Positions 53,546 through 60,345 of a stretch of DNA of 64,000 nucleotides are shown piece by piece. The notes under the pieces are model-generated. The model was not told the origin of the DNA. It did not search any database and saw nothing but the letters and a program-made list of their open reading frames with translations. This DNA is from Kiritimatiellia bacterium (lineage in GTDB: Bacteria > Verrucomicrobiota > Kiritimatiellia > CAIVKH01), in NCBI GenBank assembly GCA_035327585.1, contig DAOLDD010000004.1, positions 93,327 to 157,326 on the forward strand, written 5' to 3'. Both the position numbers and the translations under genes were made by a program. Position 1 is the stretch's first letter; the number at the start of each line of letters is the position of its first letter.

Positions 53546-53567
53546 AATGATATTCAAAAATGATATT
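53546..53567. promoter_or_regulatory. Tandem direct repeat AATGATATT-N4-AATGATATT immediately upstream of abiEi (candidate autoregulatory operator/promoter), in an AT-rich patch
   Basis: Read directly: caatgatattcaaaaatgatatttatcg, ending about 9 nt before the ATG at 53576. Confidence 0.4.
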
Positions 53568-53575
53568 TATCGTTT

Positions 53576-54217
53576 ATGAATTTTGGTATTTTGCAACGTT
53601 TGACGGCCGGTTTGGCATGTTTCGATTTAGCCACGCTGGTGCAGGCGGGTGAGGACCGGCGTGAGGCGCTTCGTATGCAGGTGTCGCGTTGGATGAAACA
53701 GGGGAAACTGATCGGGCTCCGGCGGGGCATATACACGCTGTCCGAAACGTACCGCCGTGTGCCGATTATTCCCGCAGCCTTGGCGAATCCGTTGTACCGG
53801 CCTTCGTACTTGAGCGGGCTTTGGGCGCTGGCGCATTATGATCTGATTCCGGAACGGGTGGTTTGGTTCACCAGCGTGACCCCGCGCGTGCCGCGCCGGT
53901 TCGAGAATCCGTTCGGCACATTCGAGTACCGGAACATCAAGCAGGACTTCTTCTTCGGGTTTAAAATCGTCGATACGGGCGGACAGCCCGTCGTCATCGC
54001 CGAACCGGAAAAGGCGCTGCTGGATCACTGGCATCTATGCGAAGGGGAATGGACGTCCGAACGGCTGGATGAAATGCGCTACCAGCACATGGAGTGTGTC
54101 TCCTCCGAGCGCCTCCTCGATTACGCCCGCCGTTTCCAGCGTCCCCGGCTGGAACGGGCGGCGAAGCGCTGGCTGGACCTCGCCGCCATGGCGGAGGAAG
54201 GATCAGTGGCGTTATGA
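53576..54217 (+). CDS. abiEi: AbiEi-family antitoxin/transcriptional regulator (type IV TA / abortive infection)
   Basis: 213 aa. The N-terminal winged-helix-like region and overall composition are typical of AbiEi_4. ATGA overlap with the downstream nucleotidyltransferase gene. Confidence 0.55.
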   Translation: MNFGILQRLTAGLACFDLATLVQAGEDRREALRMQVSRWMKQGKLIGLRRGIYTLSETYRRVPIIPAALANPLYRPSYLSGLWALAHYDLIPERVVWFTSVTPRVPRRFENPFGTFEYRNIKQDFFFGFKIVDTGGQPVVIAEPEKALLDHWHLCEGEWTSERLDEMRYQHMECVSSERLLDYARRFQRPRLERAAKRWLDLAAMAEEGSVAL

Positions 54218-57568: not shown

Positions 57569-57588
57569 CGGGGGGCTGAATCACCGCT

Positions 57589-60345
57589 ATGAAGCGCATC
57601 TTTATTTCCTATGCCCGCGGCGATGACGAGCCCTTCGTGCGCCGACTCCAGGCGGACCTGGTGAAGGCCGGTTTTAGGGTGTGGTTCGACCGCGAATCGC
57701 TGCTGTCGCGGGGCCTCACCTTTCACCAGGAAATCCGGGATGCCATACGAACGGAGGTGGATCGTGTCGTCTATATTGGTGGTCCGCAGGCGGCGGTTTC
57801 GACCTACGTCCGCGAGGAGTGGCAGACGGCACTGGCCTTCGATCACGTGACGGTGACGCCCATCCTGCGGTTGGGGGACTATGACGGCATACCGGGCGAA
57901 CTACGACTGCTTCACTGCGAGGATTTTCGATCGGACGCCTCATATCCGTCCGCCGTGGCGCGGCTGGTCGAAAGTCTGCGGGCGCCCAATCCTCGGATGG
58001 GAGCCCTGCATGCGGTGCCGGAGCTGCCGATCCACTTCCTTGACCGACCCGAGTTGATGGCACGGATGCGCGCTGCGCTGCTGGTGGATCTGCAAACCCC
58101 GAACGTACGGAAACGCGGTGAAACATATGTGGGCGTCCAAGGCATGGGTGGGATCGGTAAGTCGGTGCTGGCCGGCGCGCTGGCGCGCGATCGACTGGTC
58201 CGTCAGGCCTATCCCGATGGCGTGTTCTGGGTTTGCTGCGGGCCCCATATGACGCAGGACGATGCCCTGCATCGCCAGCGTGAACTGGTTCGAATGCTCG
58301 GTGGACGTGACGACTTCGTGACGGTGCGGGAGGGACTGGTTCGTCTGGGCGCGCGCCTGGCTGAACGCGCCGCGCTTCTTGTCCTGGACGATGTGTGGAC
58401 GGTCGGCGATGTTGCGGCTTTCGATGCGCTCGGCCCCCGCTGTCGGACGTTGATCACGACGCGCGATGCGGGGGTGCTTCATACCTTGCGCGGCGAAACC
58501 GTTCCGGTGTCGCTCTTTCGCGAAGAGGATGCGTTGCGACTTCTGGCGGACGCGGTGGGCCGGTCGCCGTCCGAACTCCCGCCCGGAAGCATCGAGGTGG
58601 CGCGCGCGTGCGGTTGTCTGCCCCTGGCGCTGGCCCTGTGCGGAGGCATGGCGCGAAAGCAGGGCGGCGACTTCCGCTGGGTTTTGGAACGCCTTCGGCG
58701 GGCGGAACTGGACAAAATTGCCGACCGCCAATCCCTACAGGAACAACACCGGAATCTATGGCGGGCCATGCAGGCAAGTGTGGATGTCCTGCCGGAATTG
58801 GAGCTGGCGCGCTTTCGTGAGCTGTCGGTGTTCGATCCGCAGCGTCCGGTGCCGGCCGCGGCGGCGTCAACACTGTGGGCGCACACCGGTTCCATGTCCG
58901 ACATGGACGCGGAAGATCTGCTGACCAGCCTGGCGGAGCGTTCACTTGTGCAGCGTGACGTGCCGGATCCGTCCGCGGGGCCGCGGCCGTTCAGCCTGCA
59001 CCCGCTGGTGTACGAGTATGCCCGGCGAGTGGCCGGAGACGAGCGGGTGCTGCACCAGAAACTGCTGGAGGCCTATCGACGGAAAGCTGGCGGGACATGG
59101 GATGCCATCGTGGATGACGGCTATGTGCGCGCCTTTCTACCGTCGCATCTGGTGGGTGCGGAGGCCTGGGACGAGTTGCTTCGCATCATCGATGCGCCGT
59201 TTTTCGGATGCCTACACCGATGGGTCGAGCAGGGCGAAACAGCGATGGGCGTGGATTGCCTTGCGCCCCTCGTCGATCACCTGCTGACGTCCGGGCGGGC
59301 GCGTGGCCGGGCTGCCGCGCTGGCCTGTCAACTAGCCCGTGTGCATACGCAGCGCGGTGAACCAGCGGAGTCGGAGCGGCGCCTTCGCCAGGCGCTTGCC
59401 CATGCCCGCTGGTGGCGGGACGGACGCACCCGCGCCATCGCGCATCACGAATTGGGTTCGCTGGCCCTGTATGTCGGCGACCGCGCAAAGGCAGGGCGAT
59501 GCTATCGCCGGGCGCTTTGGTGGGCACGCTGTCTGGGGCCGGCTCATCTGGATGAAGTCGCGGCCAACCGTCTCGCGCTCGCCACGCTGAATCTAGAGGA
59601 ATACGACTACGAATCCGCGATCGCGCAGGCGCGCGCAGCGTTACCCCTCGCGTCCCGCATGGGCGACGCGGCGCATGTGGTCGCCGCGCATCGCCTTCTC
59701 GCCTCCGCATTCAAGGATCTGATGCGCGCGGACGAGGCCATGCGTCATCTGGACGAGGCTGCCGCCGTGGCCCGGACGGCGGATCGGCCGGTTGAACTCT
59801 TGCACGTCCATCTCGCGCTGGGCTGGCTGCGCTACACGGAGGCCGTGCTGGCGGGCCACTCGTTCGATTCCGCCGCTGGAATCTTCCGGAAATTGATGAA
59901 AGAAGCTGGAGCCATGGAACAACTCTATGTGGAGTTGGAGGCCGCCCTGGGGCTGGTCTGGACACTCCTGGCGGATGGGGACCGCGATGCCGCTGCGCGT
60001 GCGCTGGAAGGCATTCAGGAGTCGCGTGCCTCCGCACACAAGGAGCTGGCCAGCATGTTGACATTGGGCCGGGCCAAGCTGCATCAGGAATGCGGCGTCG
60101 GGGATGCCGGGCGATTCTATCTGGAGGTGCTGGAGTGGGCGCGGGCCGCCGGCAAGCGCGGCATGGAATCGGATGCGTTGGTCGCGCTGGGCGCCGCCCG
60201 CTGGCATGGGGGCGACAGGGGTGGCGCCGAATCGTTGTGGGCCGAGGCGCGCGCGGCGGCCGCGCGGTGTGCGCCGGTCCGGCGCAGCCTGGTCGACCTG
60301 AGCATTGAGGCCGCCCGGAGGGACGCCCACTTCTCGCCGCGCTGA
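57589..60345 (+). CDS. TIR-NB-ARC-TPR STAND protein (bacterial TIR-domain NLR-like defence protein)
   Basis: 918 aa. N-terminal RIFISYARGDDEPFVRRLQADLVKAGFRVWFDRESLLSRG is a classic TIR start. Walker A GVQGMGGIGKSVLAGAL. Walker B ALLVLDDVW. NB-ARC GLPL-like CGCLPLAL. C-terminal TPR/helical repeats. Confidence 0.8.
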   Translation: MKRIFISYARGDDEPFVRRLQADLVKAGFRVWFDRESLLSRGLTFHQEIRDAIRTEVDRVVYIGGPQAAVSTYVREEWQTALAFDHVTVTPILRLGDYDGIPGELRLLHCEDFRSDASYPSAVARLVESLRAPNPRMGALHAVPELPIHFLDRPELMARMRAALLVDLQTPNVRKRGETYVGVQGMGGIGKSVLAGALARDRLVRQAYPDGVFWVCCGPHMTQDDALHRQRELVRMLGGRDDFVTVREGLVRLGARLAERAALLVLDDVWTVGDVAAFDALGPRCRTLITTRDAGVLHTLRGETVPVSLFREEDALRLLADAVGRSPSELPPGSIEVARACGCLPLALALCGGMARKQGGDFRWVLERLRRAELDKIADRQSLQEQHRNLWRAMQASVDVLPELELARFRELSVFDPQRPVPAAAASTLWAHTGSMSDMDAEDLLTSLAERSLVQRDVPDPSAGPRPFSLHPLVYEYARRVAGDERVLHQKLLEAYRRKAGGTWDAIVDDGYVRAFLPSHLVGAEAWDELLRIIDAPFFGCLHRWVEQGETAMGVDCLAPLVDHLLTSGRARGRAAALACQLARVHTQRGEPAESERRLRQALAHARWWRDGRTRAIAHHELGSLALYVGDRAKAGRCYRRALWWARCLGPAHLDEVAANRLALATLNLEEYDYESAIAQARAALPLASRMGDAAHVVAAHRLLASAFKDLMRADEAMRHLDEAAAVARTADRPVELLHVHLALGWLRYTEAVLAGHSFDSAAGIFRKLMKEAGAMEQLYVELEAALGLVWTLLADGDRDAAARALEGIQESRASAHKELASMLTLGRAKLHQECGVGDAGRFYLEVLEWARAAGKRGMESDALVALGAARWHGGDRGGAESLWAEARAAAARCAPVRRSLVDLSIEAARRDAHFSPR

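Follow-up and report, generated by a model that had tools for sequence, protein, structure and literature searches.

An AbiE cassette within an RSR locus: a RelA/SpoT–SLOG–RyR protein with a NUDIX partner and variable TIR- or DUF4062-headed sensors in a Kiritimatiellia genome

Introduction

Do four co-oriented and tightly packed genes in a metagenome-assembled genome of a Kiritimatiellia bacterium form one defence system, or do they belong to separate modules? The genes lie in a 64 kb stretch of DNA (referred to throughout, at its whole length, as the window) and encode AbiEi, AbiEii, a RelA/SpoT–TPR–SLOG–RyR protein for which the name RSR is used here, and an NLR-like TIR–NB-ARC–TPR protein of the STAND class (hereafter TIR-STAND). 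An earlier note on this DNA had proposed that they constitute a single compound defence operon. The four open reading frames (ORFs) are present as that note described, all on the plus strand (Table 1), and the sequence as read has the abiEi stop and the abiEii start sharing an ATGA at 54214–54217, abiEii and the RSR gene overlapping by 41 nt (55055–55095) and a gap of 20 nt (57569–57588) separating the RSR gene from the TIR-STAND gene. Co-orientation, tight packing and the defence flavour of the locus were likewise borne out, and the domain assignments of all four genes hold in profile searches, SLOG being the weakest of them. The union of the four genes into one system does not hold up in a comparison with related loci from other genomes.

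We favour reading the stretch as a mosaic of two modules, an independent AbiE cassette (53541–55095) and a Thoeris-like RSR signalling locus, and give this reading a probability of about 0.5. The AbiE cassette is here a passenger, at most a recurrent associate, and the object of interest is the RSR-centred locus that it interrupts. In the window the genes run, all on the plus strand, in the order NUDIX, a membrane-anchored TPR protein (TM-TPR), a DUF4062–NACHT–TM–TPR STAND protein, the AbiE cassette, RSR and TIR-STAND, followed by a small convergent gene. The conserved unit extends beyond 53546–60345, the interval that the earlier note had treated, as the NUDIX and DUF4062–NACHT genes lie outside those coordinates.

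RSR and its conserved neighbours

RSR is made up of a RelQ/RelP-like RelA/SpoT domain (residues ~1–215), a TPR solenoid (~220–490), a SLOG/LSDAT domain (~500–680) and a RyR domain (~690–837). The window protein matches the RelA_SpoT (PF04607; 6.9e-17, 62.2 bits vs a cut-off of 27) and RyR (2e-14) profiles, and its match to SLOG/LSDAT_prok is weak (E 0.0095). The predicted SLOG identity is supported despite this score because SLOG (LSDAT/TRPM type) is annotated in most of 120 listed RSR homologues, because the glycine loops (G507, G538-G539-T540 and G543) do not vary among 25 diverse RSRs, and because of the AlphaFold (AF2) model. That model (predicted local distance difference test, pLDDT, 84.9; predicted template-modelling score, pTM, 0.81) has fold matches to RelQ/RelP, CapRel, the TPRs of OGT/SPY, MHR1/2 of TRPM2 (8e6v, E 1.2e-4) and the R12 domain of RyR, and sequence searches of the PDB give the same result for the RelQ/RelP part and for the RyR part. 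Entry 8e6v is a TRPM2 structure solved in 1 mM dADPR, an ADP-ribose analogue. Invariant in 25 diverse RSRs, too, are the RelA/SpoT motifs R50-x-K52, D77-x-x-G80-x-R82, G120-Y-R-x-x-H125 and E153-x-Q-x-R-T. In NCBI, the entries 100% identical to the window RSR and TIR-STAND proteins carry the names "RyR domain-containing protein" and "NB-ARC domain-containing protein", respectively.

The RSR family comprises at least 533 full-length homologue clusters and is found mainly in the PVC superphylum (Planctomycetota, Verrucomicrobiota, Lentisphaerota and Kiritimatiellia), with further members in the Acidobacteria and Deltaproteobacteria. In PADLOC it is matched by the candidate PDC-S33 only, over the RelA domain only; RSR has no match to a Thoeris model in PADLOC or NCBIfam, and NCBIfam holds no family for it. 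The family is almost wholly confined to poorly studied, mostly uncultured phyla, and defence catalogues may miss RSR for that reason. A collection of viral contigs contained no relatives of RSR, which is thus not phage-borne in that collection.

The neighbourhood of RSR was compared across 54 genome loci whose RSR homologues are 44–85% identical, drawn from Kiritimatiellia, Lentisphaerae, Verrucomicrobia, Planctomycetes, Acidobacteria, Deltaproteobacteria and others; with three loci from metagenome look-ups included, 55 RSR loci besides the window were scored. Neighbour counts are lower bounds, the ORF selection having mis-called some high-GC loci (e.g., RSR in locus L001), and were cross-checked by tblastn. 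The AbiE side was represented by 80 metagenomic loci with the closest AbiEii proteins, 52–90% identical to that of the window.

The commonest neighbour of RSR is a NUDIX hydrolase of ~135 aa, present within 300 nt in 30 of the 55 loci and within 10 kb in 42, to which tblastn adds a few more. The window NUDIX (Pfam 3.3e-27) has an intact Nudix box (GKVDPGE-x7-REAKEESGL) and shares 88.5% identity with its counterpart in L001; its closest relatives in the PDB and NCBIfam are of the MutT type, not ADP-ribose pyrophosphatases. Proteins in which NUDIX and RSR are fused exist (P0025, P0032 and P0091, with PF00293 on record), and by 'Rosetta-stone' reasoning these fusions support a functional link between the two.

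The second recurring neighbour is a gene headed by TIR or DUF4062. At least 15 loci have such a gene within 300 nt of RSR (13 of 55 by script, with L001 and L002 added by tblastn), at least 32 have one within 5 kb and 36 within 10 kb, and the close pairs (≤300 nt) are same-strand and occur in several phyla. Pfam confirmed all six of the TIR neighbours sampled, the C-terminal parts of which vary (NB-ARC(-TPR)-like, TPR-HEAT, TPR-FGE-sulfatase and Zn-ribbon), and the column of the catalytic glutamate shows conservation in at least 80% of the 41 TIRs linked to RSR. In five loci (L008, L041, L053, L051 and the window) NUDIX and RSR have STAND genes between them. The 0.45 Mb surrounding the 80 AbiE cassettes served as a control and contained no TIR, one DUF4062 and no NUDIX of the RSR-linked family, as compared with 43 TIR, 23 DUF4062 and 49 NUDIX in 0.92 Mb around RSR. 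The RSR locus accordingly has a constant core, RSR and a MutT-like NUDIX, and a variable periphery of TIR- or DUF4062-headed sensors.

In the window this periphery consists of a 1658-aa DUF4062–NACHT–TM–TPR protein encoded upstream and the 918-aa TIR–NB-ARC–TPR protein encoded 20 nt downstream. The latter matches TIR_2 (2e-18, residues 4–127), NB-ARC (7.3e-26, 176–399) and TPR_12 (1.9e-5, 575–643 and beyond), and its translation has an intact P-loop (GMGGIGKS) and Walker B motif (LLVLDDVW). A putative catalytic glutamate lies in YVREEW (E76/E77) and appears to be in register with the SPARTA TIR alignment when this is extended without gaps. The protein is a candidate sensor and signal generator, or alternatively an NADase effector. 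Its orthologues directly follow RSR in L001, L002, L051 and L020. The DUF4062 STAND protein matches DUF4062 (9.2e-9), NACHT (1.4e-7), AAA_16, HTH_NWD1 and C-terminal TPRs in Pfam, carries Walker A (GDAGAGKT) and Walker B (LVIVIDAVD) motifs in its translation, and is 85% identical and syntenic in L051; genes of this class adjoin RSR in L003, L012, L039, L041 and L044. We take DUF4062 to be TIR-like, mainly on account of its Pfam clan; a profile–profile comparison of DUF4062 with TIR was weak (E 9e-4, probability 23%, 38 columns). The TM-TPR protein, which has hydrophobic N- and C-terminal segments in its translation, is syntenic in L051 as well.

Proposed signalling and its closest alternative

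A Thoeris-like working of the RSR locus is proposed because a constant SLOG protein is accompanied by variable TIR sensors, because the SLOG resembles that of TRPM2, and because the R12 domain of animal RyR binds nucleotides (ADP/AMP-PCP; PMC12627627, PMC13642953). The STAND/TPR sensor would recognise an invader and oligomerise, upon which its TIR head would cleave NAD+ to an ADP-ribose-type molecule. This product would be bound by the TRPM2-like SLOG and/or the RyR domain of RSR, and binding would release the RelQ-like pyrophosphokinase to produce an alarmone burst ((p)ppGpp or (p)ppApp) or to pyrophosphorylate tRNA ends, in either case leading to growth arrest. MutT/NudG-type Nudix enzymes hydrolyse (p)ppGpp, and for this reason the NUDIX partner is proposed to hydrolyse basal RSR product, so setting the threshold or resetting the system. 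AbiE would act independently of the RSR locus. The gene anatomy, the identities of the domains, the intact catalytic motifs, the neighbourhood counts and the separation of AbiE are observed; the biochemistry, the direction in which signals run and the joint transcription of the genes are inferred.

That RSR represents a widespread class of TIR-linked immune effector, in which an NAD+-derived TIR signal acts through the TRPM2-type SLOG and/or RyR to set off an alarmone burst with NUDIX as the off-switch, is a tentative proposal that we hold with distinctly less confidence than the two-module reading. If true, TIR signalling would have a new output, alarmone synthesis or tRNA pyrophosphorylation, besides NAD+ depletion, membrane damage and proteolysis, and Thoeris-like signalling would be joined to stringent-response chemistry. 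It would give bacterial RyR domains a first function, and the SLOG, NUDIX and RyR toolkit of the animal TRPM2 and RyR channels would be seen cooperating in a bacterial conflict system. A locus working as proposed would make testable whether the TIR heads of bacterial NLR-like proteins are signal makers, which ligands bacterial RyR domains bind, and where the SLOG and NUDIX modules of TRPM2 originated.

Several observations weigh against the two-module reading and the signalling that it implies. TIRs borne by STAND or Avs proteins are usually seen as NAD+-depleting effectors, which is why the Thoeris survey left them out (10.64898/2025.12.03.692087). In the window the NUDIX gene lies 7.8 kb upstream of RSR, and a MutT-like NUDIX gives no direct pointer to an ADP-ribose ligand. 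In 19 of the 55 RSR loci, many of them on short contigs, neither a TIR nor a DUF4062 gene lies within 10 kb. When the contexts of four TIR-STAND homologues were considered, RSR was found within 7 kb in two (L138 and L141/L142) and not within 7 kb in the other two (L139 and L140); the link between TIR-STAND and RSR is frequent, not obligatory. The existence of a second genome in which AbiE directly precedes RSR (L142, described below) speaks against AbiE being a neighbour purely by chance.

Some of these observations would be expected if RSR and NUDIX were a stand-alone pair, either a toxin–antitoxin module of the kind formed by toxic small alarmone synthetases (toxSAS) or an accessory alarmone synthetase and hydrolase under the control of RSR's own TPR, SLOG and RyR domains, with the TIR and DUF4062 STANDs being independent Avs/NLR-like NAD+-depleting genes that share the island. 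The adjacency of NUDIX and RSR is the strongest signal in the neighbourhood data and is accompanied by the fusions, TIR–NB-ARC homologues occur without RSR in a very large family (at least 743 matches, with TPR or WD40 tails), and small alarmone synthetases are known to form conserved two-gene toxin–antitoxin operons, in one of which the antitoxin is a hydrolase (PMC7229694). Such a pair leaves unexplained the same-strand TIR or DUF4062 genes that at least 15 loci of several phyla have within 300 nt of RSR, the nesting of STAND genes between NUDIX and RSR, the near absence of all three gene types from the control neighbourhoods, and the combination of a constant RSR with TIR partners whose sensor domains vary, as in Thoeris. 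We therefore consider the stand-alone pair a possible explanation, though a doubtful one.

Separability of the AbiE cassette

Returning to the two-module reading, the AbiE cassette can be separated from the RSR locus by its own organisation and by its occurrence elsewhere. By sequence and organisation the genes at 53576–55095 are classed as members of AbiE, a type IV toxin–antitoxin and abortive-infection system. AbiEi is matched by PADLOC PDLC02241 (7.6e-49 over residues 1–200), has no match in Pfam and scores under the NCBIfam cut-off (TAA_AbiEi, 1e-4, 22 bits vs 150), while AbiEii is matched by Pfam PF08843 (8.8e-25, 88.5 bits vs a cut-off of 22.5) and PADLOC (6.9e-62) and keeps the nucleotidyltransferase motifs GGTS, DLDF and RDWYDL in its translation. 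The length of AbiEi (213 aa) and the 4-nt overlap with abiEii are identical in ~40 related loci, and all 80 loci keep the pair as far as their contigs reach. The window AbiEii is predicted to carry an atypical tail of ~26 residues, formed by reading into the leader, ribosome-binding site and start of RSR, because related AbiEii proteins are 265–272 aa long in nearly all 80 loci and all align to window residues 1–267 only. RSR keeps its own Shine-Dalgarno sequence (GGAG, 7 nt before the ATG) inside this tail.

The earlier note had also pointed to a 9-bp direct repeat, AATGATATT, upstream of abiEi as a likely autoregulatory operator. The repeat is found at 53546–53554 and 53559–53567, with a period of 13, and does not recur in the rest of the 64 kb (0.05 occurrences expected; 0 of 100 shuffles gave two or more). 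Its role as part of a predicted operator gains support from related loci, where a TTTACA-type hexamer stands at a constant −35 (or −29) relative to the abiEi start in 25 of 36 distinct upstream sequences and the spacer holds family-specific direct or inverted repeats. On the strength of this conserved −35-like hexamer and the spacer repeats the cassette is predicted to bring its own promoter, to whose repeats AbiEi probably binds; the layout looks leaderless. The intergenic region 5' of abiEi has a GC content of 46.8%, as compared with 65.8% for the window. A consensus scan found no sigma-70 site in 53300–61300; the AbiE promoter emerged only from the comparison of homologous loci. Since a scan of the plus strand detected no terminator-like site between the four genes, the AbiE promoter probably reads through into RSR and TIR-STAND in the window genome.

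Across the comparative samples AbiE and RSR are seldom together. No RelA/SpoT, SLOG, TIR or NB-ARC gene stands beside AbiE in any of the 80 loci, whose downstream genes vary, and AbiEii lies within 300 nt of RSR in none of the 55 RSR loci and within 10 kb in two; AbiE pairs occur within 4 kb of RSR in L006 and L009. What stands of the single system proposed in the earlier note is the linkage between RSR and a TIR/STAND gene, which recurs in several phyla.

The closest comparison is offered by L051, a syntenic relative that aligns to window positions 47555–53383 and 55044–60936 at 80–84% DNA identity, with flanking genes 78–85% identical. In place of the 1660 bp that hold abiEi and abiEii in the window, L051 has 253 bp encoding a relic in which AbiEi residues 21–53 (42% identity) are fused to AbiEii residues 237–267 (55%), and its RSR (85%) and TIR-STAND (78%) are full length. 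Because the relic occupies the same place, AbiE was probably present at this site in the common ancestor of the window and L051 and then decayed in L051. The ATG of the relic (L051 9737–9989) shares an ATGA with the stop codon of the STAND gene before it, and the AT-rich promoter region is absent, unlike in the window. In L001 and L002, where RSR is 85% and TIR-STAND 78% identical to the window proteins, the RSR–TIR-STAND pair is kept and AbiE is absent.

A second case of AbiE directly before RSR was found in another Kiritimatiellia genome, GCA_018001225.1 (L141/L142), in the arrangement PFK, AbiEi–AbiEii, 88 nt, RSR, three genes and TIR-NB-ARC-WD40 (AbiE to RSR at L142 2540–6634). Its AbiEii is 77% identical to that of the window and has the same promoter layout upstream of its cassette, whereas its RSR is only 51% identical and belongs to another subclade, the nearest relatives of which (L017, L011, L014 and L022; 62–65%) adjoin NUDIX, not AbiE. 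L142 has no NUDIX within 10 kb. The L142 AbiEii ends at its own stop codon, with no overlap and a gap of 88 nt instead of the 41-nt overlap in the window, and because the junctions differ the two adjacencies appear to be separate events, AbiE having landed, or been kept, directly 5' of RSR at least twice. The association of AbiE with RSR (the window, L142, L006 and L009) is beyond chance for a random genome and resembles that seen in defence islands. A preference for the insertion site or a real benefit, such as an AbiEi-controlled promoter or stabilisation of the island, could lie behind the recurrence, and one possibility is that AbiE cassettes are recurrently recruited before RSR as AbiEi-controlled promoters or stabilising modules.

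Much of this evidence bears on the integrated four-gene system proposed in the earlier note, in which AbiEi/AbiEii would be coupled to RSR and TIR-STAND through AbiEi-controlled expression or a target shared by AbiEii and RSR. In its favour are the co-orientation, the 41-nt overlap and the want of a terminator-like site between the genes, the AbiEii tail covering the RSR ribosome-binding site, the same AbiE lineage directly 5' of a divergent RSR in L142, the relic in L051 and the nearby AbiE pairs in L006 and L009. These are outweighed by the lack of RSR or TIR genes beside the 80 closest AbiE loci and of AbiEii within 300 nt in the other 55 RSR loci, by the retention of full-length RSR and TIR-STAND where AbiE was lost (L051) or is absent (L001 and L002), by the differing junctions in the window and L142, and by the predicted promoter of the cassette itself; we regard a single system as unlikely. 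That AbiE is a self-contained cassette, separable from the RSR locus, is well supported, and for annotation the lesson is that tight packing and overlapping stop and start codons are insufficient to define a system.

Three further features were seen around the cassette. A target-site duplication was sought in ACGGATCA at 53407 and 55030 and rejected, as ~0.3 chance matches are expected for the zones compared. An imperfect tandem direct repeat of 22–25 nt (GTGTCGGGGAACATTGACAGCC / GTGTCGGGGTCGAACCACGACAGCC) lies at 53432–53478, past the stop codon of the preceding STAND gene and ahead of the AbiE promoter. Dating of the AbiE insertion by composition was likewise discarded, the AbiE genes not being distinct: GC content at third codon positions (GC3) is 0.72–0.79 in all island genes.

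Comparison with known systems

The window cassette has the properties of known AbiE systems, including strong AbiEi and AbiEii profiles, a bicistron with an ATGA overlap, the nucleotidyltransferase motifs and a repeat-bearing promoter. It differs in the extra tail of ~26 residues that runs into the next gene, in the 9-bp direct repeat with a period of 13 and in its position inside another locus. In a study of AbiE from Streptococcus agalactiae, inverted repeats reportedly form the operator.

With Thoeris (a ThsB TIR with a ThsA SIR2–SLOG protein; types I–XI) the RSR loci share a constant SLOG protein with one or several TIRs, varied sensors, the catalytic glutamate and operon-like adjacency. 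They differ in the putative effector domain of RSR, a RelA/SpoT pyrophosphokinase in place of SIR2, Macro-TM or a protease, in an SLOG belonging to the LSDAT/TRPM type, in the additional TPR and RyR domains of RSR and in the NUDIX partner. In Thoeris the TIR product binds the SLOG of the effector, and the survey of these systems lists 29 effector types; many RSR-linked TIRs head STAND NTPases, the class that it excluded (10.64898/2025.12.03.692087). The words SpoT, ppGpp, alarmone and Nudix are absent from the main text of that survey, and the 15 listed matches to 'rela' are words like 'related' (10.64898/2025.12.03.692087).

The N-terminus of RSR has all synthetase motifs of the toxSAS enzymes (FaRel, FaRel2, PhRel and CapRel) and of RelQ/RelP, is nearest to RelQ/RelP in sequence and fold, and has a fold match to CapRel, in which the enzyme is fused to a controlling C-terminal sensor (PMC9712102). 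A conserved small partner gene adjoins RSR, as in toxSAS operons (PMC7229694). RSR differs in being 837 aa long, with TPR, SLOG and RyR domains, and is thus not a 'small' single-domain enzyme, and its partner, a NUDIX hydrolase, is not among the antitoxins of PMC7229694, a paper in which Nudix, RyR and TIR are unmentioned.

Like the Avs/NLR-like TIR-STAND proteins (AP-ATPases), the window TIR-STAND protein is tripartite, with a TIR, a STAND NTPase having an intact P-loop and Walker B motif, and a TPR sensor. What sets it apart is its genetic linkage, with RSR in several lineages and with a small convergent gene that is conserved. No PADLOC AVAST model matched the TIR–NB-ARC–TPR or DUF4062–NACHT proteins at E ≤ 0.01, the only matches being at the level of the TIR, to Aga, ThsB and effector TIRs.

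RSR joins a TRPM-type SLOG to RyR and is paired or fused with NUDIX, recalling TRPM2 (N-terminal SLOG/MHR1-2, C-terminal NUDT9-H) and the R12 domain of RyR. It lacks a channel domain, and the NUDIX is MutT-like, not NUDT9-like; an evolutionary link between RSR and the TRPM2/RyR channels is a conjecture. The SLOG/LSDAT families are said to have been defined by Burroughs et al. in 2015 (NAR). As for the combination of RelA/SpoT with SLOG, Kaur et al. 2020 has RelA only as a rare vWA-linked domain and Kaur et al. 2021 holds nothing relevant; an earlier description is possible. Of the two parts of the stretch, AbiE is already known, while the RSR–NUDIX–TIR/STAND locus is widespread and apparently undescribed, a prior mention being possible. 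The latter would be a form of TIR-to-SLOG signalling with a new output.

Other genes of the island

The features of the locus are collected in Table 1.

Table 1. Features of the AbiE cassette, the RSR locus and the adjoining gene, in window coordinates
Feature	Coordinates	Strand	Basis and remarks
NUDIX hydrolase, MutT/NudG-like	46831..47250	+	Pfam NUDIX; ORF opens at 46759, likely start M25 at 46831
Membrane-anchored TPR protein (TM-TPR), 326 aa	47423..48403	+	Pfam TPR_2/TPR_16/TPR_19; 9 nt before the large STAND gene
DUF4062–NACHT–winged helix-turn-helix (wHTH)–multi-TM–TPR STAND protein, 1658 aa	48413..53389	+	Pfam
AbiE promoter/operator region (predicted)	53541..53575	+	TTTACA at 53541-53546, AATGATATT repeats, ATG at 53576
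abiEi, 213 aa, antitoxin/autorepressor (predicted)	53576..54217	+	PADLOC AbiEi
abiEii, 293 aa from ATG at 54214, DUF1814 nucleotidyltransferase toxin (predicted)	54214..55095	+	Pfam, PADLOC
RSR, 837 aa	55055..57568	+	Pfam, homologues, AlphaFold model
TIR–NB-ARC–TPR STAND (NLR-like), 918 aa	57589..60345	+	Pfam TIR_2, NB-ARC, TPR_12
DOWN193, small convergent gene	60352..60933	-	Conserved position beside TIR-STAND homologues

The stop codons of the TIR-STAND gene and the convergent gene, DOWN193, are 6 nt apart. DOWN193 takes the same convergent position in L051 (65%), L138 (36%) and L139 (37%), with an invariant C-terminal SAPY..SRSE, and its family amounts to only seven representative clusters among 1.8 billion proteins. 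It has no match in Pfam, PADLOC or NCBIfam, and its AF2 model is poor (pLDDT 57.5). DOWN193 may be a partner of this TIR–NB-ARC–TPR subfamily, as a regulator or as bait for the TPR sensor.

RyR domains are found near RSR in two further protein families. The window encodes, at 37011–39596 (+), an AAA+ ATPase with a C-terminal RyR that is 33% identical to the RyR of RSR over 152 aa, and AAA+–RyR (~860–1050 aa) or TrkA_N–RyR (~600 aa) genes lie within 10 kb of RSR in 15 of the 55 loci (L006, L019, L029, L041, L048 and others). The recurrence near RSR of two families with the same C-terminal RyR suggests that this domain is a shared sensor or adaptor. It could also be taken to mean that signalling runs in the reverse direction, RSR making an alarmone-type messenger that TrkA_N–RyR, AAA+–RyR or STAND proteins receive and NUDIX erases, and the fit of a MutT-like NUDIX to nucleoside polyphosphate hydrolysis and the adenine nucleotides bound by animal RyR R12 (PMC12627627, PMC13642953) would agree with this, but RSR itself has two putative ligand-binding domains (SLOG and RyR) as a receiver would, the additional RyR proteins accompany only about a quarter of the loci and alarmone binding by bacterial RyR domains is without support, making the reverse direction the most improbable of the explanations considered. 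On the AbiE side, the cassette of L061 (AbiEii 72%) is directly followed by a convergent gene (1021–2796) for a 591-aa protein that ends in an RyR domain and whose size fits the TrkA_N–RyR class; it is the sole RyR match in the 0.45 Mb of AbiE neighbourhoods.

Rfam, at its gathering threshold, gave no match in the whole window and thus no known riboswitch, the ppGpp and PRPP types included. The accessory island spans ~32700–61000, between carB (29217–32441) and a PatB C-S lyase gene (61216–62355), and the block from NUDIX to TIR-STAND (46759–60345) has a GC3 of 0.72–0.79 vs 0.85–0.89 for housekeeping genes. The island also holds a HerA-like ATPase (33906–36323), a sigma-54 activator (41124–42812, minus strand) and several ORFs without a family match. 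FtsW/RodA-like and MraZ-like genes occur near RSR loci in three genomes, at 44513–45574 and 44827–46218 in the window, 20998–22532 in L003, and 7835–8308 and 20097–21287 in L142; the FtsW-like ORF of the window overlaps a DnaA-like ATPase ORF, and one of these two calls is probably spurious. The recurrence of FtsW and MraZ could reflect insertion of the island near the cell-division (dcw) cluster.

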